The position numbers and the translations under genes are program-made. Positions 1,084-47,358 of a stretch of DNA of 64,000 nucleotides are shown here, piece after piece; the stretch's first letter is position 1; every line of letters begins with the position of its first letter. The notes below the pieces were generated by a model. The model ran no database searches, was not told the origin of the DNA, and saw only the letters and a list, made by a program, of their open reading frames with translations. The DNA lies in NCBI GenBank assembly GCA_017618175.1, contig JAFZUT010000020.1, forward strand, positions 5,728-69,727, written 5' to 3'. This stretch comes from Alphaproteobacteria bacterium (GTDB lineage: Bacteria > Pseudomonadota > Alphaproteobacteria > Rs-D84).

Positions 1084-2409
1084 TTAATCACGCAAGAAAT
1101 TCCGTAACGCATCACCCACCAATTGCGGTTCATCCGGGATATCCGCCGGATTCACAATTGAAACAATGCGTGGTGACATAAACACAACCAGTTCTGCAAA
1201 CGGACTTATCAATGTTTCCGGTGTCGTCACAAACGAATGCGTTGGAATACCAATGATGACATAGTTATCACCGATGCTGGACGGTATGGTGAACGAAGAT
1301 AATTCGCCCTTGCCGGTCCGCAGGACAATTTTCGCATCAATTTTTTGACGACCCGCAAAATCCCCATATTTAGCAGTCGCCCCAACAATCAAATCCGTCT
1401 CTATACGGTCTTCCTTGCTGCATTGGCCAATATCAAAACGCGATTGCCAACCATCCGGCACAACAAAATGGCCCTGGGATATAAGGACAACATTGGCCTG
1501 GCGCGATAAAAATTCTTGCAAAGTTTTTGTGTTCACTTCTGGCCCAACAACCAACGCACGCCCAACGACACCCGGCACAGACATTTTGATATTTTTTTCA
1601 CCAAACGCCGGCAACATATTCATCCAAACAATCGGGTTATCGGTGCGCGGATAAACACGATACACATCCATATCCCACGCCAACACATATTTTTTAGACG
1701 CAATATCCGCGATTATACGCGCAACCTCGCGCTCGGTTTGGTAATTTCCTTCGAACACAACGGTTTTATCGGCCCAATCTACAATAAGGTTTCTTACATC
1801 CGCGCCGTGCATTGCATCCAACAACGCCATAATTATATCTTGTTCCGCCGGCATTTTTATCAACCATTTGGCCCGATTCGAAAGTTTAATTTCACCACCT
1901 GCGGCATCATACGAATAATACATACGTCCAAGTCTTGCAATCAAATCAACCGTATCCGCCAAGTTCCCCGATGCAACCGACCCCGATACTTTTTCATATC
2001 CCGGTTCTTCTTCTACAACGGCGATATCAACACCCTCTAACAATTTATTCAATGCGTTTGCAACAGTCTGTTTTCTAAAATCATAATCCGACACATTTAA
2101 TTCCGGTAAATCGTCACCCCGGTCAAGTCGCACCATTTCAATCTTTTCATCCGGTACAACGGACACCACCGATTGATTATCCCAATTCACTGTGCATCGG
2201 CGTGGCAACTCAATCGAAAACCGCCGCGCAGTATCGGTCGTCAACGCCGCCTTTTTTGGGAAAATTGGCACAGAATTATCATCTATGACCAAATTATCAA
2301 TAACCTGGACTGTGTCATAATATACTTTTTCGTCACGCGCATCATCGCGCATACACGCCCCCAACAAAATACACACAGACATTAAAACAAAATTCGTAAT
2401 TCTTTTCAT
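1084..2409 (-). CDS. Secretin-family outer-membrane lipoprotein (type IVb pilus / T2SS secretin-like, PilN/BfpB/TcpC style)
   Basis: 441 aa with a lipoprotein signal (MKRITNFVLMSVCILLGAC). The C-terminus resembles the secretin signature (..NYVIIGIPTHSFVTTPETLISPFAELVVFMSPRIV, compare GDIPxLGxLF...ELLVFITPRIV). The family assignment is from motif memory only. Confidence 0.45.
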   Translation of the reverse strand: MKRITNFVLMSVCILLGACMRDDARDEKVYYDTVQVIDNLVIDDNSVPIFPKKAALTTDTARRFSIELPRRCTVNWDNQSVVSVVPDEKIEMVRLDRGDDLPELNVSDYDFRKQTVANALNKLLEGVDIAVVEEEPGYEKVSGSVASGNLADTVDLIARLGRMYYSYDAAGGEIKLSNRAKWLIKMPAEQDIIMALLDAMHGADVRNLIVDWADKTVVFEGNYQTEREVARIIADIASKKYVLAWDMDVYRVYPRTDNPIVWMNMLPAFGEKNIKMSVPGVVGRALVVGPEVNTKTLQEFLSRQANVVLISQGHFVVPDGWQSRFDIGQCSKEDRIETDLIVGATAKYGDFAGRQKIDAKIVLRTGKGELSSFTIPSSIGDNYVIIGIPTHSFVTTPETLISPFAELVVFMSPRIVSIVNPADIPDEPQLVGDALRNFLRD

Positions 2410-2423: not shown

Positions 2424-2795
2424 TTATATGTTCATCACCTTTTCAAATTCTTCCAACGTCATTTCATATATCGGTTTTTCCGAAGGTGTCGTCAAATCGC
2501 GCACATGTTCGAACTGGGCACGAAAACGTTCCAACACCGCAGCAACATCCGGCGACACATTCTTAGATGATTTTACCAAACGTTCACCATATTCTACAAC
2601 AAATTCTAACACGTCCGCCGCAAAAAAACGTCCAACATAATTTTCAATTGGAATTCCGCCCTTATTAACGCAGATTGCAGACATAGTTTTTGCAGTTTGA
2701 TTATAAAAATTTGCCAATTTAATAAAATTTTGAACTGTTATCGCCATCTTTTCCCCCGATACATTTTTATACATTATAAAAACTATTGCCACCAA
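2424..2795 (-). CDS. hypothetical protein (start may be the internal Met MAITVQNF)
   Basis: 123-aa ORF with no recognised motifs, in the gap between the secretin-like gene and a divergent lipoprotein gene. Confidence 0.3.
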   Translation of the reverse strand: MVAIVFIMYKNVSGEKMAITVQNFIKLANFYNQTAKTMSAICVNKGGIPIENYVGRFFAADVLEFVVEYGERLVKSSKNVSPDVAAVLERFRAQFEHVRDLTTPSEKPIYEMTLEEFEKVMNI

Positions 2796-2821: not shown

Positions 2822-3211
2822 ATGAGAATGTTAAAAATATTTTTATTTGTCGGTTTATTCGGCCTGACCGCGTGTACATCCCCCAATGGGGGCAGTATTG
2901 ATGACGCAACAATTTTGAATTGGGAAAATGAATCTGTGACGACCGAACAATTTGTTCGCGACCACAGGGCATGCCTTGGGATAACACAACCGTCGTATAT
3001 GCCACGGTCGCGCCTTGCAAAACTGCTTTCACCGAATCAGAGTACGCGTATGCCTGATTGGGACGGCCTTTGGGTGACATTTCAATCAAATGAATACAAA
3101 GATGTCGGCCAACGCGCCTTGTTGTCGGTGCCACGCAACACAACATCTAAATCTGTGGGTTCGTATCGCCGGTGTATGTTTCGCCGCGGATATTTGTTGC
3201 GTGCAATGTAA
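2822..3211 (+). CDS. putative lipoprotein
   Basis: ATG start with a signal peptide and lipobox (MRMLKIFLFVGLFGLTAC), 129 aa. Confidence 0.4.
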   Translation: MRMLKIFLFVGLFGLTACTSPNGGSIDDATILNWENESVTTEQFVRDHRACLGITQPSYMPRSRLAKLLSPNQSTRMPDWDGLWVTFQSNEYKDVGQRALLSVPRNTTSKSVGSYRRCMFRRGYLLRAM

Positions 3212-3265: not shown

Positions 3266-3946
3266 ATGAAACGTAACCTTTGGTTTTGGCTTTATTTTAT
3301 TGCCGCCATTTTGTTGGCGATATACTTTGCAACCCGCATAATTATGACATTTATGGGATACGGGCCGATATCCACGGTTCGCAACATATCTATATCGGCG
3401 GACACGAAAAATAAAGATTTAACCCAAATGGTTGCCGCAACCGGCGTATCACCCGGAACACACGCATATTCTGTGAACTTGGAATTGATAAATGAAAGAT
3501 TATTAAACACCCCCGGGGTCCGCGAATCGGCGGTGCGCCGTATGCCGAATGGTAATTTATCAGTACGTGTTCACCTGTATCGTGCGGTTGCCGGTTGGAC
3601 GGATGGCACATATTATTATCCTTTGTCGGCGGATGGAACCGTGGTCAACAGTCCATCGGAAGAACAAAAACCCGGTGTGGTTATGTTTCGTGGGCCGGTT
3701 CCAAACGATATATCTGATATAACCAAGGCCGCAACAAACCTTATCGGTGAATTGGATTATATGGAATGGATTGACGACCGGCGTTGGAATATTGTGACAA
3801 CCGGGGGCATTACGGTTATGTTACCGGAAAATGACCCGGTGGCGGCAATTGCTTCGCTGGTTGTTTTGGACAAAAAGCATAATATCTTATCTAAAAATCT
3901 TAAAACAATCGATATGCGCGATAGCGCCAGGATTTTGGTCAAATAA
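3266..3946 (+). CDS. ftsQ: Cell division protein FtsQ (POTRA-domain bitopic protein)
   Basis: N-terminal TM (WFWLYFIAAILLAIYFATRII), then a periplasmic domain. It sits immediately upstream of ftsA (TAA-ATG junction). A TATAAT is present at 3253-3258. Confidence 0.7.
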   Translation: MKRNLWFWLYFIAAILLAIYFATRIIMTFMGYGPISTVRNISISADTKNKDLTQMVAATGVSPGTHAYSVNLELINERLLNTPGVRESAVRRMPNGNLSVRVHLYRAVAGWTDGTYYYPLSADGTVVNSPSEEQKPGVVMFRGPVPNDISDITKAATNLIGELDYMEWIDDRRWNIVTTGGITVMLPENDPVAAIASLVVLDKKHNILSKNLKTIDMRDSARILVK

Positions 3947-5734
3947 ATGAATATGTTGGATTCATCTTTTCTGTGTTTGGACATTGGGTCATGCGGTGTC
4001 CGCGGCATGGCATATCGCATTCGTAATGCAGAAATAGACAAAAGCGCATATTATTCCATAGATGATTTTGATACGGTGTTTGCATTAAAATCTGTGATTG
4101 ATGAATTAGAACGTCAAATTGGCACACACTTTGGTTCGGCATACATAACGGGGAACTTTGGACCATCTTATTTCAAGATGACCGCCAAAAACACAACTTG
4201 GCCAAACGACCATAAAATAACCGCGGCCGACATAAAATCTCAAATTGCCGAAATTGATGCGCCTGATGGATTTTATCCAATGCATATAATTCCATTGCGA
4301 TATGATACACCAAAAATCCGTAATATGTTATCGCCAATTGGGCACAGTGACCGACAATTAGTATCCGCGTTTTCCGCATTATTTTTTGACAATGAATATA
4401 TGCAAAAAATACAAACACTTTTGCGCCACGCCCATATTCAATCAACCGCGTTCTATACGCCGCATTTCTTGGGAAATTCCGTTTATCGTGAAAAAAAACA
4501 AACAATTATGTTTATCGATTTCGGTGCAGAAAATACGACCGTGTCCATATGGACCGACCGCGGACCGGTTTGGTATAATGGTCGCGCAATTGCCGGGAAT
4601 GATTTAACAACTGAAATATCAACCCGGCTTGACATACCTTTTGCCGAGGCCGAACGTATTAAACGCGCGGCGGCGGACCTTAAATCAAATGAAATGGCGC
4701 GTTTCAGTCCGGCAGATTCCTCATATGCTTTTTCCTGTGCAGATGTGAACGAAATTGTTGTTCCCTTCTATACCAATTTAATAGAAAGCATAAAAAATGA
4801 TGCAACCGAATATATTGAAAAATATTCACCAACACAAATTATTATCAGTGGTGGTGGTACACGCATAAACGGAATTGACGAATTAATCGCATCCACGTTC
4901 GATATACCATTTATCAAAAAAGATACAGATTGGGCGGTCCGCACATTGGGCGAATATATATGGGCATGCGAATTACCACGCCGGCGCGCATACATTGCAC
5001 GTACCCAGAAAGTACAAAATCGTATAGATAAAATACTGAAAATATTCAAACGCAAAAAGAAACAACGTCAACATCAAATACCAATTTTACCAAGTACTTT
5101 ATGTTTTGATATGACACGCCCAGAAACATATACAATGTTTCAAACCGGCGGAATTTCGGTCATACATGTTGATATTATGGATGGACTTTATGTCAATCAA
5201 ATTGCGGGTGGAATTGATGAATTGCGTCAAATTCGTGCATCTTGGGGTGGACACTTGCATGTTCACCTTATGACCGATGCACCCGCCGAATGGGCCCGCA
5301 GTGCGGTTGATGCCGGCGCAGATACGGTAATTGTTTCAACAAACACCGCCGGCCTGCGCGAAGCGGTACAAATTGTACGCGCGGCACACCGCCGTATTGG
5401 AATCGCACTGAATCCTGAATCACCGGTGTCTTTATTAAAAACAATTTTACGGGAATTAGATGAAGTTATGATTATGGGTGTCGCACCCGGTGCCGCTGGT
5501 CAAGATTTTGACCGCGATGTGCTGCATAAAATAACCGTGTTAGATGCAACACGAAAAAAATATGGATTAAAATTCACAATATCTGTGGACGGTGGCATCA
5601 ACCCGGAAACCGCCCGTTTATGTTGGGCCGCCGGCGCCGATGCATTGGTAAGCGGTTCATACCTTGCATCCGCCCCTGATTTTCCATTGGCGGTTTTATC
5701 ACTGTTGCCGCCCGAAAAAACTAACGCACAATAA
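3947..5734 (+). CDS. ftsA: FtsA (actin-like cell-division ATPase) continuing in-frame into a complete ribulose-phosphate 3-epimerase (Rpe) domain
   Basis: N-terminal ~375 aa carry the FtsA motifs (LCLDIGSCGVRG, FIDFGAENTTVSIW, IIISGGGTRINGIDEL) and a basic amphipathic tail (IDKILKIFKRKKK). From about 5083 the frame encodes Rpe (ILPSTLCFD..ISVIHVDIMDGLYVNQIAGG...ISVDGGINPETA) with no intervening stop. Confidence 0.7.
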   Translation: MNMLDSSFLCLDIGSCGVRGMAYRIRNAEIDKSAYYSIDDFDTVFALKSVIDELERQIGTHFGSAYITGNFGPSYFKMTAKNTTWPNDHKITAADIKSQIAEIDAPDGFYPMHIIPLRYDTPKIRNMLSPIGHSDRQLVSAFSALFFDNEYMQKIQTLLRHAHIQSTAFYTPHFLGNSVYREKKQTIMFIDFGAENTTVSIWTDRGPVWYNGRAIAGNDLTTEISTRLDIPFAEAERIKRAAADLKSNEMARFSPADSSYAFSCADVNEIVVPFYTNLIESIKNDATEYIEKYSPTQIIISGGGTRINGIDELIASTFDIPFIKKDTDWAVRTLGEYIWACELPRRRAYIARTQKVQNRIDKILKIFKRKKKQRQHQIPILPSTLCFDMTRPETYTMFQTGGISVIHVDIMDGLYVNQIAGGIDELRQIRASWGGHLHVHLMTDAPAEWARSAVDAGADTVIVSTNTAGLREAVQIVRAAHRRIGIALNPESPVSLLKTILRELDEVMIMGVAPGAAGQDFDRDVLHKITVLDATRKKYGLKFTISVDGGINPETARLCWAAGADALVSGSYLASAPDFPLAVLSLLPPEKTNAQ

Positions 5735-21912: not shown

Positions 21913-22983
21913 CTACGACAAAAATGCTGTAATCTGATCTTGCATCTGGAATGTCCCCAATACTATCCACGCAATGACACCCGATATCAATAAAATCCCG
22001 ATTGTATTTAGTGTTTCTGATACAGATTCTATTTTTTTGACAGAATTTTCCAAATAGTCATTTGAAATCTGGGTCAAGTTTTCATCAAAATCGTTCATAT
22101 CGGCATAAATTGTCAAATCGCCAATAAGTTCATTGTTTGGAAAATCCATCCCCGTATTCTGTAAAGCATTTCCAAGGTTGTCACCATTTGCGATATAATG
22201 CAATGTTTCTTCTAAAATACGCCGCAGATACCTGTTTGAATTATCCGCCAACATTCGCATTGCGTCCGGAATCGTCACACCCGCGGCCACCATCGCAGAA
22301 AGTGACATCATCCAACTGACCGAAAGACGAATTTTATATATGTTCCACGGGGGCAAAGCGTCCAAAATCACACGTATACGCCCAGAAAACCGCGGTAAAG
22401 ACCACCATATCAAAAACATCATTGCCACAAACACTATCGAAAAAGCCTGCCAATACTTGCCGGCCAAATTGGACAACCATATAAGTGATGCCGCCCCACC
22501 GGACCAAACCATGCCTTCGCCGGCAACCGCGGACAAAGGCGGCACCAAATAAAGCCCGACCATAATTATAATTGCAAAAACCAAAACCAATAATAATGTT
22601 GGATATGCAATGGCACTGAACACCGCGCCACCTATTCTTTTATTTGCGACAATTATGCGACCAACATTTTCCAACGCGACAATCAAACTGGACATATTCC
22701 CGGATGTAAGCAACAGGGTTTCTTCGGCCGGAACCCAACCACGTGTGGCCTCGGAAAAACTAAGACCGCGTTCAAGGTTTTTTTCCCATTCACGCATACA
22801 TATTGCAAACGGTTCGTTCGGTTTTGCACCACCATGCGATTCTATCATTTGCAACCGGTTCAATGCATTTACCAAAGTGAAATCATTTTTCAGCAATGAA
22901 ACCAATTTACGCCAAATCGATATCCGTTTGTCATTACTAAAACGGCAAACCATTTTGGCGTAAAATATTTCAAGTCTGTTCAT
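21913..22983 (-). CDS. GspF/PilC-family inner-membrane platform protein (type IV pilus / T2SS)
   Basis: Polytopic protein with GspF-domain features (RYLRRILEETLHYIANGDNLGNALQNTGMDFPNNELIGDL). The internal ATG at 22981-22983 sits 1 nt after the ATPase stop; the ORF track extends to 23043. Confidence 0.6.
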   Translation of the reverse strand: MNRLEIFYAKMVCRFSNDKRISIWRKLVSLLKNDFTLVNALNRLQMIESHGGAKPNEPFAICMREWEKNLERGLSFSEATRGWVPAEETLLLTSGNMSSLIVALENVGRIIVANKRIGGAVFSAIAYPTLLLVLVFAIIIMVGLYLVPPLSAVAGEGMVWSGGAASLIWLSNLAGKYWQAFSIVFVAMMFLIWWSLPRFSGRIRVILDALPPWNIYKIRLSVSWMMSLSAMVAAGVTIPDAMRMLADNSNRYLRRILEETLHYIANGDNLGNALQNTGMDFPNNELIGDLTIYADMNDFDENLTQISNDYLENSVKKIESVSETLNTIGILLISGVIAWIVLGTFQMQDQITAFLS

Positions 22984-22984
22984 A

Positions 22985-24622
22985 TCAATAAACCCCCGGT
23001 CTGTCCAGAAGTCCAACCCAGCGTTCCAACTCATCAACACCAATTATACCCTGCAACATCAAAGAACACGCAGATTCTTTTAATGTGCGGCCATCCATTT
23101 CTTCCAACCAATATTTGACGGCTGCATCGGTATTACCGGCCAACGCCAATTGTAAAAATTCACTGTTGGTTATTATGATTTCACCGGCCTTGATACGTCC
23201 CAATGTACCGGTTCCATTGCACGCATCACAACCCGGACCACGGACATATACCTGATTTAATCCCAAATCACCAAAAGTATCCATCACACGGGCATATTCC
23301 GGATATTCCGGATGATTCTTTAATTTTTCGCGACAATGCGGACACAGTCTTTTGAACAAACGCATAGAAACCAAACCACGCATCATTGTTTCTTCTTTTA
23401 ACTTGAACGCTTCGACCCCCATATCTAATAACCTGACCAAAGCCGCCATCGCAGAATTCGCGTGCAATGTTGTCCACACATTATGCCCCGACAACGCACC
23501 CTTAACCGTCAATTGCGCGGCGGCCAAAGTTCTTATTTCACCAACCATCAATGTATCGGGGTCGCTTCGCAATGCGGCGGCCAACGCCTCGGTATATTCA
23601 GCCTCGCGCTGTTCTTCACTTGCGGTATTTACAACCGGAATTTGATGCGCACCAAAAATCTTTTGTTCAACCGGGTCTTCCACTGTTATAAGATTGATTT
23701 CATAATTATGCTCTTTTAACATCAACACCATATTGCGAACCAACGTTGTTGATTTACCAGAACTGGTTGGGCCGGCAACAACAACCAAACCCGTTGGATA
23801 CGAACGCAGACGCCGCAAAAGTATTTGTTCATATTTTCCAAATTCTTGTTCCGTTGTTATATTTTCCGAAGGATTATCATACAACAACCGCATAACCACA
23901 TACCGCGAACCAAATGCGATTGGATTAAATTGCATTCTTATACTTAGCACCCCTTGCGGCAGATACAAATCTTTGGTTCCACGCAATGGTGTACGCCCGT
24001 CTTTCTGGGCCGATTGATATTCGTTTTGGGCATAGTTCGCATTCGAAATATCGGCCGATGCAAACGCAGCACGAACAAAAGATTCGCCCCACCCCGAATT
24101 AAATTCCAGAACCGGTTGCATACTGCCGTCTATACGAAAATATATTGTTGTTTGGTCTGCAACTTCGATATGAATATCTGAAACCTTTTGAGCGGCGGCC
24201 TTGGCAATAATATCAACAAAATCCTTTTGCATTTGGTTGTTAAAATCGACACGCGAACGATTTCCATCACCCAAAGTATTTTCATAATATTTATATATTG
24301 CAGACACCAAACCTAAATCAGAATAAAACGGTATACGCATAGGACGATTTTTCTTGCGCAACAAATCCATAAACGCAATTACACGCCCATCATACCGATG
24401 TGTACGTGAAATAATAAGACATCCGCCCGAAAAGTACGCCAATAAACCCTGGGTTTCTTTTGGCAATTCAAATTCTGCGCCCGGTGCCGTCAACAGGTGA
24501 TTATCTTCGGTAAACAGGTATTCAATTATCTCTTTATTATCCGCGTGTTCCAATCCCGCCGGCACAGACGGTTTTTGGGAATCAGGCGTTTTTTCTAAAA
24601 CATTCTTGTCATCGTTTTTCAT
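22985..24622 (-). CDS. GspE/PilB-family secretion/pilus-assembly ATPase (type IVb/T2SS type with tetracysteine zinc motif)
   Basis: Walker A VVVAGPTSSGKSTTL, Asp and His boxes, and CPHCREK...GPGCDACNGTG (the tetracysteine arrangement typical of GspE/BfpD/TcpT-class ATPases), all in a 545-aa protein. Confidence 0.8.
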   Translation of the reverse strand: MKNDDKNVLEKTPDSQKPSVPAGLEHADNKEIIEYLFTEDNHLLTAPGAEFELPKETQGLLAYFSGGCLIISRTHRYDGRVIAFMDLLRKKNRPMRIPFYSDLGLVSAIYKYYENTLGDGNRSRVDFNNQMQKDFVDIIAKAAAQKVSDIHIEVADQTTIYFRIDGSMQPVLEFNSGWGESFVRAAFASADISNANYAQNEYQSAQKDGRTPLRGTKDLYLPQGVLSIRMQFNPIAFGSRYVVMRLLYDNPSENITTEQEFGKYEQILLRRLRSYPTGLVVVAGPTSSGKSTTLVRNMVLMLKEHNYEINLITVEDPVEQKIFGAHQIPVVNTASEEQREAEYTEALAAALRSDPDTLMVGEIRTLAAAQLTVKGALSGHNVWTTLHANSAMAALVRLLDMGVEAFKLKEETMMRGLVSMRLFKRLCPHCREKLKNHPEYPEYARVMDTFGDLGLNQVYVRGPGCDACNGTGTLGRIKAGEIIITNSEFLQLALAGNTDAAVKYWLEEMDGRTLKESACSLMLQGIIGVDELERWVGLLDRPGVY

Positions 24623-24636
24623 CTGTTATGCCAAAA

Positions 24637-25341
24637 CTAATTTTTATTACCAACATTTAATGTTTGAATTTCACCGTCTTTGATAAACACGACACCTTCG
24701 TCCAACGATATAGACTTAACAGTATAACCATCCAATTGTTTTCCAACACTAAGACGTTTGTTTTGCCCATTGGATAAATCCTGAACGGTCGCCTGTAATT
24801 GTGCGCCGGCACCGAACACATTCAACAGTTTGTAATTTTTCTCGATTTCGACATCTTTTGGTGCCTCGGCCACAAACGATTGTTGTTTTTGCGGTTGATT
24901 TTGCGCATCTTGTTGTTTATTAACCATAGATTCTTTTTCCAATTCCAAACGTTTTGCTTCGGCCTCTAAACGCGCACGTTCCGTTTCAAATTCTTGTTGT
25001 TGTTGTTCTGCGCGTCCCGACAGCGTATCGATTTCCATATGCAATTTGATTTTTTCTGCGGCCAAGCGGTCCAAATCCAGATTCAATTGCGCGCGTTCTT
25101 TTTCCAATTGCATCAAAACTTTTTCTTGTTCCAAATCTGTGATTTGTTGAAACAACGAACCTTCAACTTGGTAATCTTCGATTGCGTCCGCAGAAAATTC
25201 TTCATTTGCCGCAATATCATTTGAATTTACTTCTTCGATAACATCAACAACATTCTCAAAGACCGTGTCTGCACAATATCCGGATGTCACACCGAACAAA
25301 AAACAAACCGAAACAAATAACATTTTTATTTTATTTTGCAT
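24637..25341 (-). CDS. PilP/GspC HR-domain-like periplasmic protein
   Basis: Signal/anchor, a long E/Q/K-rich coiled coil, and a C-terminal beta domain (YKLLNVFGAGAQLQATVQDLSNGQNKRLSVGKQLDGYTVKSISLDEGVVFIKDGEIQTLNV) that follows the PilP pattern. Confidence 0.45.
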   Translation of the reverse strand: MQNKIKMLFVSVCFLFGVTSGYCADTVFENVVDVIEEVNSNDIAANEEFSADAIEDYQVEGSLFQQITDLEQEKVLMQLEKERAQLNLDLDRLAAEKIKLHMEIDTLSGRAEQQQQEFETERARLEAEAKRLELEKESMVNKQQDAQNQPQKQQSFVAEAPKDVEIEKNYKLLNVFGAGAQLQATVQDLSNGQNKRLSVGKQLDGYTVKSISLDEGVVFIKDGEIQTLNVGNKN

Positions 25342-26593
25342 AGATTATCACCTCATAGTTCCATGTTTTTCTGGCCACGTTCCACGCCGCCTTGGTCATA
25401 TATACGCCGCCAAAATCTTCAAAAATCAACATAAACTGGGACGGTATCAATTTAGATTCCACCGCAACTTCGACAACGTATACCTCTGCCGATTGGGTTT
25501 CATTCGAAACCGCATCAACGACAACTGTTATATTTGGGTCCAAGTTTATTGCCTGGAAACGACTGGTCAATTCGCGAACAATTGAATCCGGGTCACGAAC
25601 ATCTTGCGATGACACCGCGATACGTTCGGGCAATTTCGCACGCGCCAAAATTTCGTTATCATTTATTTCCTGAACGAATATACCGGGCATAACATTTGCG
25701 GCAACCGAATAAAAATCATCTAATGTTCCAAAAGAACGTTTGAATGTTGCAAACGCGTGTGTTTCGCCACATTCGGCAACCGTTTGATTCCACCCGGCCA
25801 CCTGTTGCATCAAAAATCCAATTGCACGATAACACAAATCTGCACGCTCGGCCGGTTCCGGCAAAGATTCGTACGGCATTACCAACGGTTCAATCGGCGC
25901 AGGTTGACGCATATTAAATTCTTTATCCAGTTCTTTATTTTTTTCTTCTATTTGCCGATGATATTCGGCGGCCAATTCAGGATTTTGACGCGCCATCTGC
26001 GGCTTTGGCGAAAACATTTCGTTTATCGGTTCACGGAAAATATATAAAAACACGAAAACGAACAATGCAAAAATTGCCAACGACATAAGACCCGCACCAA
26101 AGTGACTTATCGAACGCAAAACGCCATGCGAAGGACCAAAAATCAAATCCGTTAAATCACGTTCCACCGTACGTGGCATTCCCCAAGAAGCCGGCGCAAA
26201 CAACGCATTCCAATCAGGTATTTCGGCTAATTCAGCATATTTTTCACGGGCCGCCGATTCAGAATCGAAAATCAAATCATAAATTATCACACCATTTCTA
26301 ACGGCAACCAAAACAAATTTATTATCAACCATAAACACGCACAGCATTGACGCATAACCGGGTAATGCCTCTACTATCTCGACTGCGATGGACGGCATAC
26401 CCGAACGTTGACCGTTCACACGTGCGCCCAAACCAACCATACCATTATAAGAAATATATTGATTTAACCTGCGGTCTATTCCGCGCGCCAATTTATACGC
26501 ATACGCGCGTGGTGTAAACCCCGCAACCAACGGTTGCCAAAGCAAGCCCGCCGCATACTTTTTTCTTTTAATATGTACGTATTGTCCCGACAA
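25331..26593 (-). CDS. Bitopic pilus/secretion assembly protein (BfpC/PilO-R64/GspL-like topology)
   Basis: 420 aa. A ~170-aa cytoplasmic domain, one TM (LMSLAIFALFVFVFLYIF), and a ~230-aa periplasmic domain. It overlaps the next gene by 11 nt. The start is TTG with a GAGAGAG RBS. Family assignment rests on topology and synteny only. Confidence 0.35.
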   Translation of the reverse strand: MSGQYVHIKRKKYAAGLLWQPLVAGFTPRAYAYKLARGIDRRLNQYISYNGMVGLGARVNGQRSGMPSIAVEIVEALPGYASMLCVFMVDNKFVLVAVRNGVIIYDLIFDSESAAREKYAELAEIPDWNALFAPASWGMPRTVERDLTDLIFGPSHGVLRSISHFGAGLMSLAIFALFVFVFLYIFREPINEMFSPKPQMARQNPELAAEYHRQIEEKNKELDKEFNMRQPAPIEPLVMPYESLPEPAERADLCYRAIGFLMQQVAGWNQTVAECGETHAFATFKRSFGTLDDFYSVAANVMPGIFVQEINDNEILARAKLPERIAVSSQDVRDPDSIVRELTSRFQAINLDPNITVVVDAVSNETQSAEVYVVEVAVESKLIPSQFMLIFEDFGGVYMTKAAWNVARKTWNYEVIIYAK

Positions 26594-27156: not shown

Positions 27157-28092
27157 TTACGCATCTATTATATCATAATTATCCGGATTACTGAACAATT
27201 TTTTAAGCAACATATTATTCATTGCATGACTGCCCTTGTACGATTCCAAATTTCCTATGATAAAGCCGTTCGATGTGAACATATCACCAATTGCGTCTAT
27301 GATTTTATGACGCACAAATTCATCAGGCCAGAAAGTTTTATTTAATGTTCCATCCCCTGCATCATTCAACGCAATAACATTGTTTTCATTTGCCCCACGT
27401 GCCATACCACGTTTTTTAAGGTATTCCCATTCGGCATATTTTCCAAATGTTCGCGCGCGCGCAATATTTTTAACAAAATCTGCGACCGATTTTTTTGTCC
27501 CGTCATAAGTGTATGAAAAACTTTGATAACCTATGATTTTTTCACGATAAACCAAAGTCGCATATATATTCAAAGAATTATTATCATTCGGCGTTAATTT
27601 AACAAAACCATCAATATTGCGCCGGGTCAATAAATTCATAAACCAAATTTTTGCACGCATCCAAAATGGCAAAGACCGAAAAACATCATACGCCCCAACA
27701 TAAACGGGACGCCGCACAAAAACACGTTTTATCTTGCCACCTGTTGTGCCCGCCGCCGATATCGCACGGTAAAATTCTATCGCACTGCCATCCAATATTG
27801 GGGTCTCCGGTCCGTCTATATCAACAATTGCACTGTCAATTCCGGCCATAAACATTGCCGCCATAAAATGTTCAATTGTTTTCACATGCGCCGAATCTAA
27901 ATCACCAATTGTGGTGTTCCGCATTTTTGTATCACCAACATTATCAAATTTCACAGGTATTAAATTTTTATCTAAATCTGTACGCCGAAAAAATATTCCG
28001 CGCCGCCTGGACGGTTTAACAACCATATTCACCGGTGCCCCCGAATGAATTCCAACCCCAGAAAACTTAACCGACTTTTTTATCGTTGGCAT
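27157..28092 (-). CDS. lpxC: UDP-3-O-acyl-N-acetylglucosamine deacetylase
   Basis: FSGVGIHSG N-terminus and an overall LpxC layout. Confidence 0.9.
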   Translation of the reverse strand: MPTIKKSVKFSGVGIHSGAPVNMVVKPSRRRGIFFRRTDLDKNLIPVKFDNVGDTKMRNTTIGDLDSAHVKTIEHFMAAMFMAGIDSAIVDIDGPETPILDGSAIEFYRAISAAGTTGGKIKRVFVRRPVYVGAYDVFRSLPFWMRAKIWFMNLLTRRNIDGFVKLTPNDNNSLNIYATLVYREKIIGYQSFSYTYDGTKKSVADFVKNIARARTFGKYAEWEYLKKRGMARGANENNVIALNDAGDGTLNKTFWPDEFVRHKIIDAIGDMFTSNGFIIGNLESYKGSHAMNNMLLKKLFSNPDNYDIIDA

Positions 28093-28993
28093 TTAATTTC
28101 TCCTTTAACCAATCAAAAAATTTTTCATCTATATTTGTTTCTAATCTAACATATTTTATTTTGTCGCGCACATTTTCAGGCAACCGGACCCAGTCTTTCT
28201 CTGTGGTCACCAGTTTTGCATTTTTTCGTGTTGCCAAATTCATTAAATATTCTATATCTTTTTCTGTATATTGATAATGGTCACCAAACGAACGCCGCGC
28301 AACAACATTTGGCAACGCCCGAAAGAATTTTTTTGGATACCCAATACCCGCAAAGGCAACAATTCTGTCATATCGGCCATTTGGCATAACATTTTTATTT
28401 GTTGCATAAAATACCGGCACATTTTCAGGTAACTTTATTTTGCGTTTTGATTTTTCACGTTTAATAACAATTATCGCATCTGCACGCCGTAAATGTTTTT
28501 TGGGTTCACGTAACGGTCCGGCCGGCAATAAAAAACCATTTCCAAAACCCAAACTTTCATCCAACACAACAACAGAGACATCTTTTTTGATAGACGGATT
28601 TTGCAAACCATCATCCATTAAAATTGGTCCATTTTCATTTTTTTGGCGATTTAATAACATTATATTACTTTTCCGGTGACCGACATGAACCGCAATTCCA
28701 TCATTCATTAACATTGTCGCCTCGTCACCAATATTCCCGGTTTTTGCACTGCGTTTATATCCACGCATAACAACCGGTATATCCAACCGATTGGCAATTG
28801 CACGCACAATTGGTGTTTTTCCAACCCCGCCTGCGAACAATCCACCAATGCATATAATTTTACGGCGCGATTTATACGCAAAAATTTTACGCCAAGAATA
28901 AACAATACGTGAAAATAAATAATATACACCCGCGGCCGGCAACAATAAAAATGCCAACGGAGTTTTATATAAAAACCACCAAGGTGTTTTCAT
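28067..28993 (-). CDS. lpxK: Tetraacyldisaccharide 4'-kinase
   Basis: ICIGGLFAGGVGKTPIV P-loop typical of LpxK. Confidence 0.8.
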   Translation of the reverse strand: MKTPWWFLYKTPLAFLLLPAAGVYYLFSRIVYSWRKIFAYKSRRKIICIGGLFAGGVGKTPIVRAIANRLDIPVVMRGYKRSAKTGNIGDEATMLMNDGIAVHVGHRKSNIMLLNRQKNENGPILMDDGLQNPSIKKDVSVVVLDESLGFGNGFLLPAGPLREPKKHLRRADAIIVIKREKSKRKIKLPENVPVFYATNKNVMPNGRYDRIVAFAGIGYPKKFFRALPNVVARRSFGDHYQYTEKDIEYLMNLATRKNAKLVTTEKDWVRLPENVRDKIKYVRLETNIDEKFFDWLKEKLNANDKKVG

Positions 28994-29773
28994 CTATCTG
29001 TACCTTTTGGTTAGTTTTGGTTCACGCCCTTCCCTTTTAAGACGCTTAAATTCACCGGTTTTCAAATCTTGTTCAACCACATAATGATTAAATTCTGCAT
29101 CCAATTCACGCAGTTGTTTAACCATAATATCTTCTAATTCCGTGCGTTTAGATTCAAAATCTTCGTGTGAAATCTTGGAATCTATATACATTGGTTCACC
29201 AACCCGGCATTTTATTTTTGTAAATGGATACACCAACATATATCGGTCCCAACGATTTTGAATCCAAACATGCCGCGCAGAAAAGCACACCGGAATAATC
29301 GGCGCACCCGTCATTTTTGCGAAATATAACGCACCTTCTTGGACACGCAGTGACGGTCCACCCGGTCCATCGGGCGAAATACACAAAGAATGATCGCCGC
29401 GACGCAATGCGCGTACACCTTCGCGCAGAACCGATATACCGCCGTTATGCGAACTGCCATAAATTGCACGCAGACCAAACAAATGCTGTAATTTTGCCAT
29501 CATTTTACCATCTTTGTGGCGCGAAGCAATGGCATAGGATTTCATACCACCCAAACACACAATCGGCGACAACATTAAACTGCGCCCGTGCCAGAAAACA
29601 AATATAGCGGGTTTATTGTGAAATTTCTTGAAAATTTCATAATTTATAACCTGTTTACGGCTGGTAAAATATATAAACCATATTATTGCGGCCATAACGG
29701 CGGCAATAATCCATTGAAACCCGGAAAACCCGAGTATAGGTTCCCAAAATTTTTTCCATAACTTTCTAAACAT
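28994..29773 (-). CDS. Lysophospholipid-acyltransferase-like protein (DUF374 family, commonly upstream of lpxK/kdtA in alphaproteobacteria)
   Basis: N-terminal TM and a conserved FVFWHGR...ISPDGPGGP core. Confidence 0.55.
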   Translation of the reverse strand: MFRKLWKKFWEPILGFSGFQWIIAAVMAAIIWFIYFTSRKQVINYEIFKKFHNKPAIFVFWHGRSLMLSPIVCLGGMKSYAIASRHKDGKMMAKLQHLFGLRAIYGSSHNGGISVLREGVRALRRGDHSLCISPDGPGGPSLRVQEGALYFAKMTGAPIIPVCFSARHVWIQNRWDRYMLVYPFTKIKCRVGEPMYIDSKISHEDFESKRTELEDIMVKQLRELDAEFNHYVVEQDLKTGEFKRLKREGREPKLTKRYR

Positions 29774-35698: not shown

Positions 35699-36004
35699 AT
35701 GAAACAGCAGGTGCTGAAAGCTTTGGCGAATCCGTCGCATTTGTTTTATGTGCCATATACTTTGGCGGTGCTGAATTTTATGGTGCAATTTATTGTTTTT
35801 ACTATTTTATATATAATTGGAATATTTATTTTGAAAATAGATAAAGTTAATACTTATCTAAATCCTTTATATTTTTTAGCATCGGTTATAATTGTTCATA
35901 TGATTTTGGCTACTTTTTCAAAACGGGATGCACAACTGGGGCAAATTTTGGTGGCAAAAATAAAAATGTTCAAAAATAAAATTCCACGGAGATTGCCTGC
36001 ATGA
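35699..36004 (+). CDS. virB3: Type IV secretion system protein VirB3
   Basis: 101 aa with the VirB3-like LANPSHLFYVPYTLAVLNFMVQFIVFTILYIIGIF segment. It overlaps virB4 by ATGA. Confidence 0.65.
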   Translation: MKQQVLKALANPSHLFYVPYTLAVLNFMVQFIVFTILYIIGIFILKIDKVNTYLNPLYFLASVIIVHMILATFSKRDAQLGQILVAKIKMFKNKIPRRLPA

Positions 36005-38418
36005 TGAATAATTTTTTTGAATTTTTTGCCGGTGGTGGAATTTCCAATAACATGACTTTAACAGTTATGGTGGTGGCTGTTATTTTTATGTTTATTATAC
36101 TAATGATATTTATTCCAACAATTATTAAACATATATTTCCAAAGTTTGGATATAAACATTATGCGGAATATATACCATTTCAAACGGTTTATACAGATAA
36201 TTCGATTGAATTAGATGATGGTTGTTTGGTTCGTGTTTATTCGGTTGCCGGTGTTCAAACCAGTATGCAAACCGAAGAAAATCGTGCAAAATTCTTGGAC
36301 CTGCGTGCACAATTGTTTAATCAAATACATGATCCGAATGTTGTTATGCGATTTTTCACAATTCGTGATGCGGCGGGCGAAAATACAAATTACGAATTTG
36401 ATCAACCGGTTTTGCAAAAAATATATGATAAATGGCATTCCCAAGGATTAAAAATTTTCCTTAATAATTATTATATAGTTTTGTCTGTGCGCGGTGTATC
36501 TGCACGTGATAAATTAAATCAGTATGGAAATTATATTGAATCTATACTTGCACCATATAAACCAAAGGTATTAAAGAATAATTCGCGTGATAATATGGCA
36601 CGGTTTTTTGGTCGTATATTTTCACCAATTACTAAACCGGCACCCGCCGTTTGTGATGATAAAATCAAAGAATTATCGACTGTTGATGATGTTGAATTTC
36701 TACGTAATGGAAATGTTAAATATATAAGTGGTAGTCGTGAATATTATGCTGCACTTATTTCTTTCCGTGGTGCACCAGATTATTTAGATGAAGACTTTTT
36801 TGATTCTGTGAATACTATTCAAACAGAAATGATTTGTATGAATGGATTTAAAATTATGGATGCCGCCGCGGTCGAGGCCACATTACGTCAGCGCCGTAGT
36901 GCCGCCGACAAAGAACACGATACAACCGAAGAACAAATTTCCAGTGCAGAATCTGTAATGGATGAAAATGTATCTGGAAATCAAACATTGGTTAATTATT
37001 ATCCTTTGTTTGTTTTGTTTGGTAAAACACAGGAAGAATTAACAGAATATGTTGACGAATTTAAGAAGATATCCGCATCTTTTGGTGTGTCACCAATTCA
37101 AGAAAATTTTGCATCAAAAGTTTCTTGGTTCTCTATGATACCTGGGTTTGATACATTCCCACGAACCTTTAAAATGTTATCACGTGCTGCGGCTATATCT
37201 ATACCAATGTCTACAACTCCACGCGGTGTTACAAATTCTGATTGGGGTCCGGGACCATTGGTTGTATTCCCAACTGCCCAGGGTACACCATATCAATTCC
37301 AATTCCATGTTTCTGACAAACCTGCGGCGGTTGCACATACTTTAACAATTGGTCCAACCGGAGGTGGTAAAACAACATTATTCTCTTTTCTTATTGCACA
37401 ATCATTGCGGCATAAAAAATTAAAAGCATTTTTCTTTGACCGTAACAAAGGTGCCGAAATATTCACTCTTGCGGTTGGTGGCAAATACGTGACCATGCAG
37501 GGTAAAGAGAAAAATGAAACAGAATTTTTAACACACCTTAATCCATTAAAAATGCCGGATACGGTTGCGAACCGGGCATTTTTGCGCCGTTGGTTTGCGA
37601 TGATATCCGAACAAAACGATGCGTTATCCGCGGACGAGATTGCACGTGCGGTATCTGTGAATTTTGATTATTTGTCTGATAAAGACCGTATGTTAAAAAA
37701 TCTTTATGAAAGTTGTTTTTCATCCAGTGGGAAAATGCGTGCCGCATTAAAAAAATGGGTTGATCCATTACAATATGGTGAAATATTTAATGAAAATAGT
37801 GACACATTAGATTTACAATCGCGTTTAACAACATTTGATTTTACCGATATTTTACAAGACGCAACATTGGCGCCCGCGGTTATATCATATATATTACACA
37901 GAATAAATAATACGACCGTATCTGGTGGAAACCCATCATTAATTATGATTGATGAAACCGCACCTATGTTAGAAAACAAAATGTTCCGTGATAATTTTAT
38001 TGCCGGCCTGCAAGAAGGAAGAAAAAATCGCCAGGCATATATGGTCGCGTTCCAACGCGCAAATGTTTTGGATAAATTGGGTATTGGTGATGTTGTCCGT
38101 GGCCAGGCACAAACGATTATGTTCTTCCGTAATCCTGCGGCGGATGCGGCGGATTATGAACATTGGAATTTGAATCCGTTAGAAATGGCGTTTATCCAAG
38201 GCAAGGCATATCCTAATCTAAAACGTGCGGTGTTATTATCGCGCCCGGTGAATAATGAATCTGTAATTTTGAATACGGAACTTGGTGGGCTGGGGAATCT
38301 TTTAAGATTATTTGAATCTGGTCGTTCATCGGTGTTATTGGCCGAAGAATTATATAATCAATTTGGTTCAAATTTTGTCGCAGAATACCTTAAAAAGCAA
38401 GGTGCAGGTGATTTTTAA
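36001..38418 (+). CDS. virB4: Type IV secretion system ATPase VirB4
   Basis: 805 aa. Walker A TIGPTGGGKTTLFSFL, Walker B LIMIDE, and the CagE/TrbE/VirB4 domain layout. Confidence 0.9.
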   Translation: MMNNFFEFFAGGGISNNMTLTVMVVAVIFMFIILMIFIPTIIKHIFPKFGYKHYAEYIPFQTVYTDNSIELDDGCLVRVYSVAGVQTSMQTEENRAKFLDLRAQLFNQIHDPNVVMRFFTIRDAAGENTNYEFDQPVLQKIYDKWHSQGLKIFLNNYYIVLSVRGVSARDKLNQYGNYIESILAPYKPKVLKNNSRDNMARFFGRIFSPITKPAPAVCDDKIKELSTVDDVEFLRNGNVKYISGSREYYAALISFRGAPDYLDEDFFDSVNTIQTEMICMNGFKIMDAAAVEATLRQRRSAADKEHDTTEEQISSAESVMDENVSGNQTLVNYYPLFVLFGKTQEELTEYVDEFKKISASFGVSPIQENFASKVSWFSMIPGFDTFPRTFKMLSRAAAISIPMSTTPRGVTNSDWGPGPLVVFPTAQGTPYQFQFHVSDKPAAVAHTLTIGPTGGGKTTLFSFLIAQSLRHKKLKAFFFDRNKGAEIFTLAVGGKYVTMQGKEKNETEFLTHLNPLKMPDTVANRAFLRRWFAMISEQNDALSADEIARAVSVNFDYLSDKDRMLKNLYESCFSSSGKMRAALKKWVDPLQYGEIFNENSDTLDLQSRLTTFDFTDILQDATLAPAVISYILHRINNTTVSGGNPSLIMIDETAPMLENKMFRDNFIAGLQEGRKNRQAYMVAFQRANVLDKLGIGDVVRGQAQTIMFFRNPAADAADYEHWNLNPLEMAFIQGKAYPNLKRAVLLSRPVNNESVILNTELGGLGNLLRLFESGRSSVLLAEELYNQFGSNFVAEYLKKQGAGDF

Positions 38419-43165: not shown

Positions 43166-44311
43166 CTAACTTCCTTTGGCAGACAATTGTTGGTCTTTAT
43201 GTATATGCGCATTTTCACAAAGTCCAAAGCCGAACATCAGTGATAAAAGACTGCTGCCGCCAAAGGACATAAGTGGTAATGGCACACCCACGGTTGGAAC
43301 AAGCCCAAGCACCATGGAAATATTTATAAAATAATAAATGAAAAAGTTCAACATAAAACCAAAACAAACTAATTGACCGAACCTGTTGCGGCACATTTTC
43401 GCGGACCAGAACAGAATTGCGACAATCACGCTGTACAAAAATAACAGGATAAAAGCACCCAAAAAGCCGAATTCTTCGCCCAACATTGTAAATATAAAAT
43501 CAGTTTGCTTTTCCGGCAAAAACGACTGTTGCGATTGAGAGCCGTTCAAATACCCTTTGCCAAAAATACCGCCACTGCCGAATGCAATTTTCGCCTGGTT
43601 TATTTGATAACCGGCACCACGCGCATCGTGGTCAGGGTTTATAAACGTTATAATCCGGTTACGTTGATATTGGTGCAGACCACCATACCAAACGACCGGT
43701 GCGGCCATAACGGCAAGTATTGCACCAATAATAAACCATTTTTTGTTTGCCCCAACAATATAAAACATCCCCACCGTAATCATCGCAATAGAAAGCGCGG
43801 TACCTAAGTCAGGCTGCATAACAATTAGTGCAAACGGAATCAGCATCATAAGTGACGGCACAATATAGTTTTTGAATTTGGTTAAATCAACCGAGTTCAT
43901 CCACGCAAAATATCGGGCCAATGCCAAAACAAGTGCCATTTTGAACATTTCTGATGGTTGAATATGTATGAACCCAAGGTTTAACCACCGTTGCGCCCCC
44001 ATACCAGTATACCCGACAAAAGTGACCAAAATAATAAGAACCAATGCAATTGCATAAATGATATTTGCCGATTTTATCCATAATTTTATGTTTGTGAACG
44101 CGGCTATGAAAAACACCCCAAATCCAATTATGATTTTTAACAATTGCGACAGGGCAAATGGGTGCCATGCGCCCCCGCCCGCGGAATACAGTATTACAAC
44201 CGATATAATCAAAACCAAACACATTGGAACAAACAAAGGCCACGAAAAACGGGACAGTTTTTCGGAAAAACTCATCATATTTGCATTAGAAACGCGCGTT
44301 TGTCTGTTCAT
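43166..44311 (-). CDS. mrdB: Peptidoglycan glycosyltransferase RodA (SEDS family)
   Basis: Polytopic SEDS protein downstream of PBP2. The preferred start is the internal ATG (MNRQTRV...) directly after the mrdA stop; the ORF track extends to 44404. Confidence 0.8.
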   Translation of the reverse strand: MNRQTRVSNANMMSFSEKLSRFSWPLFVPMCLVLIISVVILYSAGGGAWHPFALSQLLKIIIGFGVFFIAAFTNIKLWIKSANIIYAIALVLIILVTFVGYTGMGAQRWLNLGFIHIQPSEMFKMALVLALARYFAWMNSVDLTKFKNYIVPSLMMLIPFALIVMQPDLGTALSIAMITVGMFYIVGANKKWFIIGAILAVMAAPVVWYGGLHQYQRNRIITFINPDHDARGAGYQINQAKIAFGSGGIFGKGYLNGSQSQQSFLPEKQTDFIFTMLGEEFGFLGAFILLFLYSVIVAILFWSAKMCRNRFGQLVCFGFMLNFFIYYFINISMVLGLVPTVGVPLPLMSFGGSSLLSLMFGFGLCENAHIHKDQQLSAKGS

Positions 44312-44313
44312 CT

Positions 44314-46089: not shown

Positions 46090-46537
46090 CTTGTACCGCC
46101 CGGATAGTTGTTGTTATTGGGATATACATAATTACAAGAATTAAAAACATCACCGCCCCAGATAACATATTTACAAGACTTAAATGCGACAAAACCAACA
46201 ATAAAATCACAGTTCCAACAAAACCCATAAACGGGTATATGCCATCCCGATTGGTATGCGTCAAATCAATAAATGTTTGCAGGTTTATAACAACATAAAA
46301 CATACAATAAAAAACCGTCCATATCAAAAGAGTATTAAACTTGTAATCAAGAAGAAAACAAATCAGTATTGCAAACGCGGCAAAATACGGCACAGGCCGT
46401 ATAAAAGAACAATAAAATATTGGTACAATCGCCAATATCCCACCGGGATTTATCCATGGCGCAGATAACCGCCACAAAGCCACCGTGATAAAAAACGGAA
46501 ACAAAACCTGTAAAGATTTTATAATTTGCCCTTTCAT
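46082..46537 (-). CDS. mreD: Rod shape-determining protein MreD
   Basis: Small five-TM protein placed between mreC and mrdA (assigned by synteny). Confidence 0.6.
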   Translation of the reverse strand: MKGQIIKSLQVLFPFFITVALWRLSAPWINPGGILAIVPIFYCSFIRPVPYFAAFAILICFLLDYKFNTLLIWTVFYCMFYVVINLQTFIDLTHTNRDGIYPFMGFVGTVILLLVLSHLSLVNMLSGAVMFLILVIMYIPITTTIRAVQDD

Positions 46538-47358
46538 TTATATTTATTTTGTTCAAAATTAAACTTTAACACCATAACGCGCGATAATTCCCGTGGGGTA
46601 AGAACATCTACATCTGAATCGTTTTTCATTTTTCCAACAAATATATCTGGGGGTAAAACGCCGCTTATACCACTGGTCACCAACTTCACACCGGCATCAG
46701 GTTGAAATTTATGGTCATTGAAAAATCCAATTGTTGGTGTGTTTGAACCGTTCCCGGACAAAAACCCATAGACCTCAGATCCGGCGACACGAACGGCGAT
46801 ATTGGTATTTGAATCTATCAAAGACCGTACACGTGCAAAATTTGCACCCGCATCGATTATTATGCCGGCCAATGTGTTATCAAAAGACACAACAACCATA
46901 CCCGCCCCAATCCCATCACGCGAACCACGGTTTATAAGAAAGGTTCCGTGATGCAATGCGGAATTATCAAATATAACATCTGCAACAACACTGGCATACG
47001 GATGGTTACGAACTATATCCAATTCGCGTTCTAATTCCTGGTTTTCAAGTAACGCAATATCACATTTGTTCTTATCGGCCAAAGCCTGGTCCAATCGGGC
47101 GCGTAATTCTTCGTTTTCTTGTTCAAGATTATAAATATCATGCACCCTTTTTATAATTTTCCCGCCCGCCCTAATCGGCCAAGTCACCAAATCACCAACA
47201 CCATTTACAACGGGCAACGCAATATGGGCAAACCCGTTCATAACACGATAATCCGGCTTTGCAACGACAATATATATAAAAACAAATGGCAAAACCGCCG
47301 CGACAATCGCGGATTTTATAATTGTGTGCAATCTGGAAGATATTTTCTTTGGGTTCAT
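46534..47358 (-). CDS. mreC: Rod shape-determining protein MreC
   Basis: N-terminal anchor, a coiled coil (NLEQENEELRARLDQALADKNK), and a beta-rich C-terminal domain. Confidence 0.72.
   Translation of the reverse strand: MNPKKISSRLHTIIKSAIVAAVLPFVFIYIVVAKPDYRVMNGFAHIALPVVNGVGDLVTWPIRAGGKIIKRVHDIYNLEQENEELRARLDQALADKNKCDIALLENQELERELDIVRNHPYASVVADVIFDNSALHHGTFLINRGSRDGIGAGMVVVSFDNTLAGIIIDAGANFARVRSLIDSNTNIAVRVAGSEVYGFLSGNGSNTPTIGFFNDHKFQPDAGVKLVTSGISGVLPPDIFVGKMKNDSDVDVLTPRELSRVMVLKFNFEQNKYK

Follow-up and report, generated by a model that had tools for sequence, protein, structure and literature searches.

The DNA considered here, hereafter the window, is a stretch of 64,000 nucleotides (64 kb) on contig JAFZUT010000020.1 from an alphaproteobacterium of the order Rs-D84. 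At positions 3947..5734 of its forward strand lies a single open reading frame (ORF) in which a homolog of the division protein FtsA is continued, with no intervening stop codon, by ribulose-phosphate 3-epimerase (Rpe). This ORF most probably represents a genuine, anciently fixed fusion, in which the FtsA of Rs-D84/Candidatus Enterousia carries a complete and, as far as sequence and structural model indicate, catalytically competent Rpe as its C-terminal domain within one polypeptide; the most likely product would be a membrane-tethered bifunctional protein. The novelty is one of architecture, as both domains belong to ordinary families and do not constitute a new kind of system. No description of an FtsA-Rpe fusion, or of any link between Rpe and the divisome, was found in full-text literature searches, where most subscription journals were out of reach.

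The fusion is composed of the following elements (dN/dS, ratio of nonsynonymous to synonymous substitution rates; pLDDT, predicted local distance difference test score; PDB, Protein Data Bank):

3947..5734, forward strand: ftsA::rpe fusion ORF, 595 amino acids, ATG start (ORF calling, Pfam and NCBIfam)
3947..4972, forward strand: FtsA actin-fold core, residues 1-342 (Foldseek, profile search, motifs, dN/dS of 0.09)
4973..5047, forward strand: long predicted helix, residues 343-367, the distal part of which (about 355-369) is amphipathic (AlphaFold2)
5048..5077, forward strand: predicted disordered, strongly basic linker KRKKKQRQHQ, residues 368-377 (AlphaFold2 pLDDT, charge)
5078..5734, forward strand: Rpe (beta/alpha)8 barrel, residues 378-586, and a short tail (PDB alignment, Foldseek, active-site residues, dN/dS of 0.06)
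5165-5167, forward strand: H407, metal/catalytic residue of Rpe
5171-5173, forward strand: D409, metal/catalytic residue of Rpe
5264-5266, forward strand: H440, metal/catalytic residue of Rpe
5588-5590, forward strand: D548, metal/catalytic residue of Rpe

An earlier note on this DNA had described a 595-residue ORF with an FtsA-like domain followed by an Rpe domain, and had left three readings open: a real bifunctional fusion, a lost ftsA stop codon or homopolymer error, and an Rpe with its own internal non-ATG start. The ORF is present at 3947..5734 exactly as described, as are the peptides quoted from it (IDKILKIFKRKKKQRQHQ, which corresponds to residues 360-377, and further ILPSTLCFD, VIHVDIMDG, and SVDGGINPETA) and an A-rich run near the junction, found at about 5055-5067. 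As one polypeptide the predicted product is of ~66 kDa. Pfam assigns residues 189-321 to FtsA (PF14450, 41.2 bits versus a cut-off of 31.8) and, in the same chain, residues 382-573 to Ribul_P_3_epim (PF00834, 133 bits versus a cut-off of 21.1), the latter match covering positions 4-197 of the 198 in the profile. NCBIfam also recovers both domains, each of them below the respective equivalog cut-off.

The fusion is widespread among relatives of the organism. When about 5.8 billion proteins were searched, 768 matched, and the best 120 clusters all contain both domains; they are 57-100% identical to the window protein and 588-598 residues long, except for two shorter ones (567 and 529 residues), which are probably truncated. 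In a scan of genomes, with one genome per species, a full-length match was found in 62 species-level genomes at identities from 94% down to about 30%, and in each of these 62 loci the FtsA and Rpe domains reside in one uninterrupted ORF. The source genomes stem from the guts of goat, cattle, yak, sheep, horse, chicken, human (Hadza and Brazilian cohorts), and termite, and are labeled Candidatus Enterousia, Alphaproteobacteria bacterium, or Rickettsiales bacterium.

How deep the fusion reaches was addressed with the FtsA half alone (residues 1-376), used as HMMER query in an exhaustive search of 1.84 billion cluster representatives. Just 47 matches at E≤1e-10 were obtained. The best full-length relatives of the FtsA half are themselves of fusion length (542-623 residues), some of them at only 24-30% identity; canonical FtsAs of about 400 residues surface only at about 25% identity, with E-values of 1e-16 or weaker. 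All nine long distant relatives that were scanned (24-32% identity) contain PF00834, and P0126, the one close relative that looks short, breaks off within Rpe because its contig stops there. Distant fused members, too, come from metagenome-assembled genomes (MAGs) of Alphaproteobacteria or Rickettsiales. Alignment to relatives, which the earlier note had proposed as a check, thus revealed the same uninterrupted frame throughout; neither the 62 loci nor the search with the FtsA half showed a split version of the fusion.

The two halves have evolved in concert. Across 2,775 pairs drawn from 75 fused proteins, the identities of the FtsA and Rpe halves correlate with r = 0.92; it follows that one fusion event joined the halves and that they have been passed on jointly from then on. 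Mean identity is 0.43 for the FtsA half versus 0.61 for the Rpe half, that is, the FtsA half evolves faster. From pairs that are 75-97% identical, dN/dS was estimated as 0.09 for the FtsA core, 0.30 for helix and linker, and 0.06 for Rpe; with dS almost saturated in these comparisons, the values are rough. FtsA core, linker, and Rpe are under purifying selection. Because the frame has been kept across species with dS of about 1-1.5 and in relatives only 24-30% identical, the fusion is not recent; the ORF is neither a sequencing artefact nor the product of a recently lost stop codon.

The Rpe half gives every appearance of an intact enzyme. It aligns to residues 4-214 of the 220 of Rpe from Streptococcus pyogenes (PDB 2FLI) with an E-value of 4e-45, and Foldseek superimposes its model on that structure with a template modelling (TM) score of 0.93 and a root mean square deviation of 1.5 Å at 34% identity; the barrel is complete. 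In the profile alignment the metal and catalytic residues H34, D36, H67, and D176 of 2FLI correspond to H407, D409, H440, and D548. None of the four varies among 56 homologues, and 74-75 of the 75 fused proteins retain them; equally invariant in the 56 homologues are M411, M442, and M510, the methionines around the reaction intermediate (the catalytic and Met residues as a set are kept in 70-75 of the 75), and S383 of strand beta-1 is likewise conserved. The fused domain thus shares with stand-alone Rpe (2FLI, PF00834) the full barrel, the His/Asp/His/Asp set, the three Met, and the beta-1 Ser; it differs in that it has no start codon of its own and is joined to FtsA at strand beta-1. In the AlphaFold2 model this strand begins at about residue 380. 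The earlier note had let Rpe begin about 8 residues past the basic segment; in fact the enzyme starts immediately, as I378-P379-I380-L381-P382-S383 align with residues 4-9 of the S. pyogenes protein. Among PDB sequences, the Rpe half is much nearer to Firmicute (S. pyogenes, E-value of 4e-45) and plastid or cyanobacterial structures than to those from proteobacteria (Neisseria, Pseudomonas, Stenotrophomonas; E-values of about 1e-27 to 1e-29); this better match hints that the rpe in the fusion might differ in origin from the ancestral gene of alphaproteobacteria.

The AlphaFold2 model of the whole protein, built on 56 homologues, has a mean pLDDT of 89.8 and a predicted TM score of 0.61, the latter as expected of two domains that lack a fixed mutual orientation. 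When the N-terminal half was compared with the PDB using Foldseek, the top 17 matches were all FtsA (from Thermotoga maritima, Staphylococcus aureus, Vibrio, Xenorhabdus, and E. coli), with TM scores (normalized to the target) of 0.65-0.74 over 345-386 columns. The half thus has an actin (ASKHA) fold with its subdomains (1A, 1C, 2A, 2B) arranged as in FtsA. The family profile matches FtsA sequences in the PDB with E-values from 1e-14 to 1e-12. The motifs for ATP binding are recognizable as D12/G14 (phosphate 1), D191/G193 (phosphate 2), and G302/G303 (adenosine); D12, G14, D191, G193, and G302 are invariant and G303 is nearly so in the 56 homologues, and the residues are kept in 69-75 of the 75 fused proteins, distant ones included. 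The phosphate 2 motif reads DFGAENTT instead of DxGGGT. The AERIK motif typical of FtsA is conserved in the fusion family. The SHS2_FTSA domain (subdomain 1C) was detected in the distant fused proteins P0144, P0145, P0148, P0149, and P0158; in the window protein it had no match at E≤0.01. Compared with canonical FtsA (PDB 1E4G, 4A2A, 3WQT, and 7Q6F), the fusion thus shares the actin-like fold, the ATP and AERIK motifs, the gene position after ftsQ, and a predicted amphipathic basic helix past the core that resembles the membrane-targeting sequence. It differs in its sequence, which in the FtsA half is ~15% identical to solved FtsAs and ~25% to the nearest unfused ones, in that the segment resembling a membrane helix is internal and followed by an enzyme of 220 residues, and in that ftsZ is not the next gene.

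As a rule, FtsA terminates with its membrane-targeting helix. In the fusion, the helix (about 355-369) together with the basic stretch (368-377) would correspond to this targeting sequence, now internal. The 11-mer RIDKILKIFKR (residues 359-369) has the top helical hydrophobic moment of the whole protein (0.82), and in 31 of 60 orthologues the segment ranks among the top 10; residues 368-375 are predicted with pLDDT <50. Over the 13 residues preceding Rpe, the net charge lies between +4 and +8 in all 60 orthologues, and the spacer between the conserved W339 and P382 measures 43-44 residues in 49 of 59. Many orthologues fit the pattern W-x-x-R-x-N-W-[IF]-x-[KR]-[IL]-F-[HK]-R around the helix, which may be taken, as a lead only, to resemble the membrane-targeting sequence of E. 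coli FtsA. Where the earlier note had seen a basic amphipathic segment of the FtsA membrane helix type, the properties of the segment (moment, charge, and predicted helix) bear out the description; the targeting role itself is a reading from these properties and the model.

The direct neighbors of the fusion gene are:

3266..3946, forward strand: ftsQ-like gene (Pfam FtsQ_DivIB_C, 39.8 bits), upstream of the fusion in 62 of 62 loci and in the distant locus L081
5721..6131, reverse strand: tsaE (Pfam TsaE, 113 bits), convergent, syntenic in most related loci

There are zero intergenic bases between the TAA stop codon of the ftsQ-like ORF and the ATG of the fusion, and the last 14 nucleotides of the fusion ORF overlap the convergent tsaE. 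In the 62 loci the order is kept: two genes of unassigned family (unk441 and unk123, both reverse), a lipoprotein gene (lipo129, forward), ftsQ (forward), and the fusion (forward), then usually tsaE (reverse), uvrB (reverse), and an asmA-like gene (forward). In L081, the locus of the distant member P0148, the order is ftsL-like gene, ftsI, ftsQ, fusion, rpmB, which is the classical ftsA slot of the division and cell wall (dcw) cluster. The part of the dcw arrangement that precedes ftsA is thus present (ftsQ in 62 of 62 loci, ftsI-ftsQ in L081) and the part that follows it, ftsZ, is not. The earlier note was correct about the absence of ftsZ downstream; the gene that comes next, tsaE on the opposite strand, sits where ftsZ would be expected. 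The FtsZ tubulin signature GGGTG[ST]G is found neither in the 64-kb window nor within 10 kb on either side of the fusion in the 62 related genomes, and no tubulin/FtsZ domain was detected among the larger ORFs of the window scanned with Pfam. By tblastn, the window contains no second rpe or ftsA.

Three genes just upstream of ftsQ (2822..3211, forward; 2424..2795, reverse; 1084..2409, reverse) are present in all 62 Rs-D84 loci, and searches of Pfam, NCBIfam, and PDB sequences returned no match for them. The first of these encodes a small predicted lipoprotein (lipobox LTAC), lies on the same strand as ftsQ and 54 nucleotides ahead of it, and is 67-98% identical across the order, which is above FtsQ (33-96%) and the FtsA half (25-93%). 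This lipoprotein may thus have a role in division or in the envelope that has so far gone unnoticed.

Several observations weigh against the proposed fusion of two functional domains or against parts of that proposal. Neither half reaches the curated thresholds of its family: TIGR01174 (ftsA) scores 69.4 bits versus a cut-off of 175.85, TIGR01163 (rpe) 142.6 versus 212.6, and NF004076 163 versus 165. Because of the equivalog scores (TIGR01174 and TIGR01163), both halves are to be regarded, by sequence, as divergent members of their families, and the functional equivalence proposed for them derives from motifs and fold, not from family thresholds. Some loops of the Rpe half also deviate from the usual sequence (YV[DN]x in place of FVPN, PGAAGQ in place of PGFGGQ), which together with the missed cut-offs sets it apart from stand-alone Rpe. 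Since these cut-offs are missed while the Rpe models still outscore the model for allulose-6-phosphate epimerase (123), the assignment of ribulose 5-phosphate (Ru5P) and xylulose 5-phosphate as substrates is probable but not secure. With respect to the membrane helix, the sequence of the amphipathic segment is poorly conserved, and it is absent in four very distant fused members (P0153, P0158, P0159, and P0173), where only a short basic or proline-rich linker is left. Further, in the AlphaFold2 model the amphipathic part continues the last core helix directly, with no flexible linker in between, in contrast to canonical FtsA. The FtsA halves of the four distant proteins may be degenerating, or may be anchored to the membrane differently; P0153 and P0158 have no Pfam FtsA match, P0159 was outside that scan, and locus L061 corresponds to P0159/P0272.

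That the long ORF is an artefact or a recent accident, caused by an error of sequencing or assembly or by a strain-specific loss of the ftsA stop codon, is suggested by the A-rich stretch at the junction and by the indels possible in metagenome assemblies. Against it, the same frame recurs in 62 assemblies that are independent and come from different species, as well as in more than 120 clusters, and the DNA at their junctions is different all along; moreover, the length of the linker is constrained, dN/dS is below 1, and no relative shows a split version; the probability left to this explanation is negligible. The lost-stop or homopolymer reading of the earlier note is thereby refuted, as an artefact or recent event, by a frame that persists at the divergence given above. 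Its other alternative, a separate Rpe, can be put more broadly: Rpe might mainly be made alone from a start in the linker, the long ORF being an overlap or a minor product. In favor of this, 36 of 60 orthologues have an ATG (29) or TTG (7) just before the P-S of strand beta-1, and Shine-Dalgarno (SD) motifs are rare, so that the absence of one proves nothing (an SD-like motif stands 4-13 nucleotides upstream of just 7 among 23 confident gene starts in the window, and those of ftsQ and ftsA are without). Translation initiation in the lineage seems to be largely SD-independent, and SD motifs were dropped as a gauge of internal initiation since most confident starts lack them. However, no start codon in the linker is conserved; the codon before P-S specifies L, M, A, or Y, and in the window, before P382-S383, it is TTA, a non-start. 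Moreover, the conserved F/I-P-I upstream already belongs to strand beta-1, aligning with residues 5-7 of solved Rpe, and a product started later would miss part of that strand. A separate Rpe start would also be expected to follow a stop codon, and there is none in any species. A scan of positions 2400-6400 for an internal promoter or terminator at the junction gave counts equal to the shuffled expectation. Predominant internal initiation is thus quite improbable, and the internal non-ATG start of the earlier note finds no support; still, the ATG-bearing orthologues (about half) count to some extent against a strictly fused product, as some separate Rpe could be made in them.

Alternatively, the protein could be made as one chain and then be cleaved in the exposed basic linker, releasing a free FtsA with its membrane helix at the C-terminus and a free Rpe. 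The linker, being K/R-rich and predicted to be disordered, should be accessible to proteases, and a cut there would restore the canonical C-terminal place of the helix; yet no cleavage motif is conserved (charge and length alone are), the tight spacer length suits a tether better than a disposable cleavage site, and processing of FtsA is not known to have a precedent, which makes such a polyprotein hard to credit. Somewhat easier to imagine, if still unlikely, is that one half has changed its job, the FtsA half being a degenerate scaffold or PilM-like protein or the Rpe half a non-catalytic module for sensing or oligomerisation. For the FtsA half, the score far below the equivalog cut-off would fit this, as would its match to the PilM_2 model (36.7 bits, cut-off 27), the name PilM given by NCBI to some members, its faster evolution, the fact that ftsZ is not adjacent, and the presence of type IV pilus-like genes elsewhere in the window. 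PilM (PDB 2YCH and 5EOX) has a related fold of the ASKHA superfamily. However, the TM score of the FtsA half to PilM is only 0.52, below that to FtsA; its gene always follows ftsQ (ftsI-ftsQ in L081), with tsaE and uvrB downstream and no pilNOPQ alongside as PilM would have; distant family members match SHS2_FTSA; the ATP and AERIK motifs are conserved; and the low dN/dS of the FtsA core signifies strong constraint. PilM identity, considered owing to the PilM_2 match and the NCBI names, was rejected on grounds of the ftsQ/ftsI context and the better structural match to FtsA. For the Rpe half, invariance of all catalytic, metal, and Met residues at its still lower dN/dS would be unexpected for a purely structural module. 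This leaves the real bifunctional fusion as the reading of the earlier note that is supported, by the single ORF in all loci and clusters, by purifying selection, and by the motifs kept in both halves.

If the fused protein acts as a whole, its mode of action might be as follows. With the helix and basic stretch as its anchor, the junction would rest against the cytoplasmic membrane from the inside, and the Rpe barrel would hang on a tether of ~10 residues. The active sites of TIM barrels lie at the C-terminal ends of the strands; hence, the N-terminal face of the barrel would be turned toward the membrane, with the active site looking into the cytoplasm. Each part would keep its function, FtsA in division and Rpe in interconverting ribulose-5-phosphate and xylulose-5-phosphate for the non-oxidative pentose-phosphate pathway, which is reported to be truncated in these sub-1-Mb genomes. 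Since Rpe enzymes usually occur as dimers or hexamers, the fused Rpe probably also cross-links FtsA protomers. The likely origin is the loss of the ftsA stop codon beside an adjacent rpe in the common ancestor, during genome reduction. Retention of the fusion could be a matter of neutral tolerance; alternatively, it could serve co-regulation, the control of FtsA oligomerisation, or the sensing or channelling of metabolites. A more far-reaching proposal, which we regard as doubtful, is a hard-wired link of metabolism and division: membrane-held Rpe would oligomerise, bind pentose phosphates, and control the polymer state of FtsA and activation of the divisome, or Ru5P would be channelled to septal envelope precursors; in its extreme form, there would be no FtsZ, and arrays of FtsA-Rpe would organise division.

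MAG 125_22-69, which is locus L008 of this study, is an Enterousia of the order Rs-D84 (PMC12306168). Members of the order are described as rod-shaped, with genomes <1 Mb, and as probable obligate symbionts or parasites, whose glycolysis is incomplete and whose non-oxidative pentose-phosphate pathway is complete but for transaldolase; Rpe is among the enzymes listed, as an ordinary pathway enzyme, and the fusion is not mentioned (PMC12306168). Type IV pili have been reported only for UBA9783, not for Rs-D84 (mSphere paper). The window contains a cluster resembling type II/IV secretion or type IVb pilus systems (21913..26593, reverse), with T2SSF, a T2SSE ATPase, and a PilO-like accessory protein, and, separate from it, a VirB4/TrbE-like ATPase (36001..38418, forward); such machinery would suit the proposed partner-dependent lifestyle.

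Other genes of the window concern the cell envelope. An elongasome operon is intact (43166..47358, reverse) and consists of mreC, an ORF of 151 residues that is maybe mreD, mrdA (penicillin-binding protein 2), and rodA; rod-type wall synthesis is therefore kept despite the scattered dcw genes. lpxC, lpxK, and a DUF374 gene lie together (27157..29773, reverse), 22 kb from ftsA. In E. coli, lpxC directly follows ftsZ, and the linkage of the two is thus also broken in the window. As lipopolysaccharide genes are present, one may speculate that 3-deoxy-D-manno-octulosonic acid (Kdo), which derives from Ru5P, is a sink for the product of Rpe. Apart from these, an ORF of 483 residues (51446..52897, forward) has a ThyX (Thy1) domain on residues 42-227 only, the remaining ~250 residues being without a Pfam match; it may be another fusion or extension in this compact genome.

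Links of metabolic enzymes to the divisome are not without example: UgtP of Bacillus subtilis, OpgH of E. coli, and GdhZ and KidO of Caulobacter regulate it. No link of this kind is known from earlier work except in the form of a reversible interaction. The FtsA-Rpe protein resembles them in that an enzyme of central metabolism would be physically present at the early division machinery and might offer a route from nutrients to division; it differs in that those are separate proteins which bind FtsZ reversibly and in a substrate-dependent manner, whereas the predicted product here has the enzyme attached to FtsA covalently and permanently.

A practical consequence concerns annotation. The public names hide ftsA or make rpe look ordinary in reconstructions of Rs-D84/Enterousia: distant members are called "ribulose-phosphate 3-epimerase" or "hypothetical protein", and closer ones also "PilM". 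The interest of the fusion lies in an enzyme kept for a long time after the membrane helix of FtsA and in the possible coupling of metabolism and division. A 24-kDa enzyme carried behind that helix throughout order-level diversification amounts to a natural experiment on what the C-terminus of FtsA tolerates, and equally on the effect that oligomerisation of an appended domain has on FtsA filaments. Should the fusion be simply a tolerated product of genome compaction, it would be a curiosity of moderate interest; as a single chain it also joins central carbon metabolism to the divisome covalently, and if the proposed regulatory connection holds true, division of these nutrient-scavenging symbionts would be tied to their supply of pentose phosphates.

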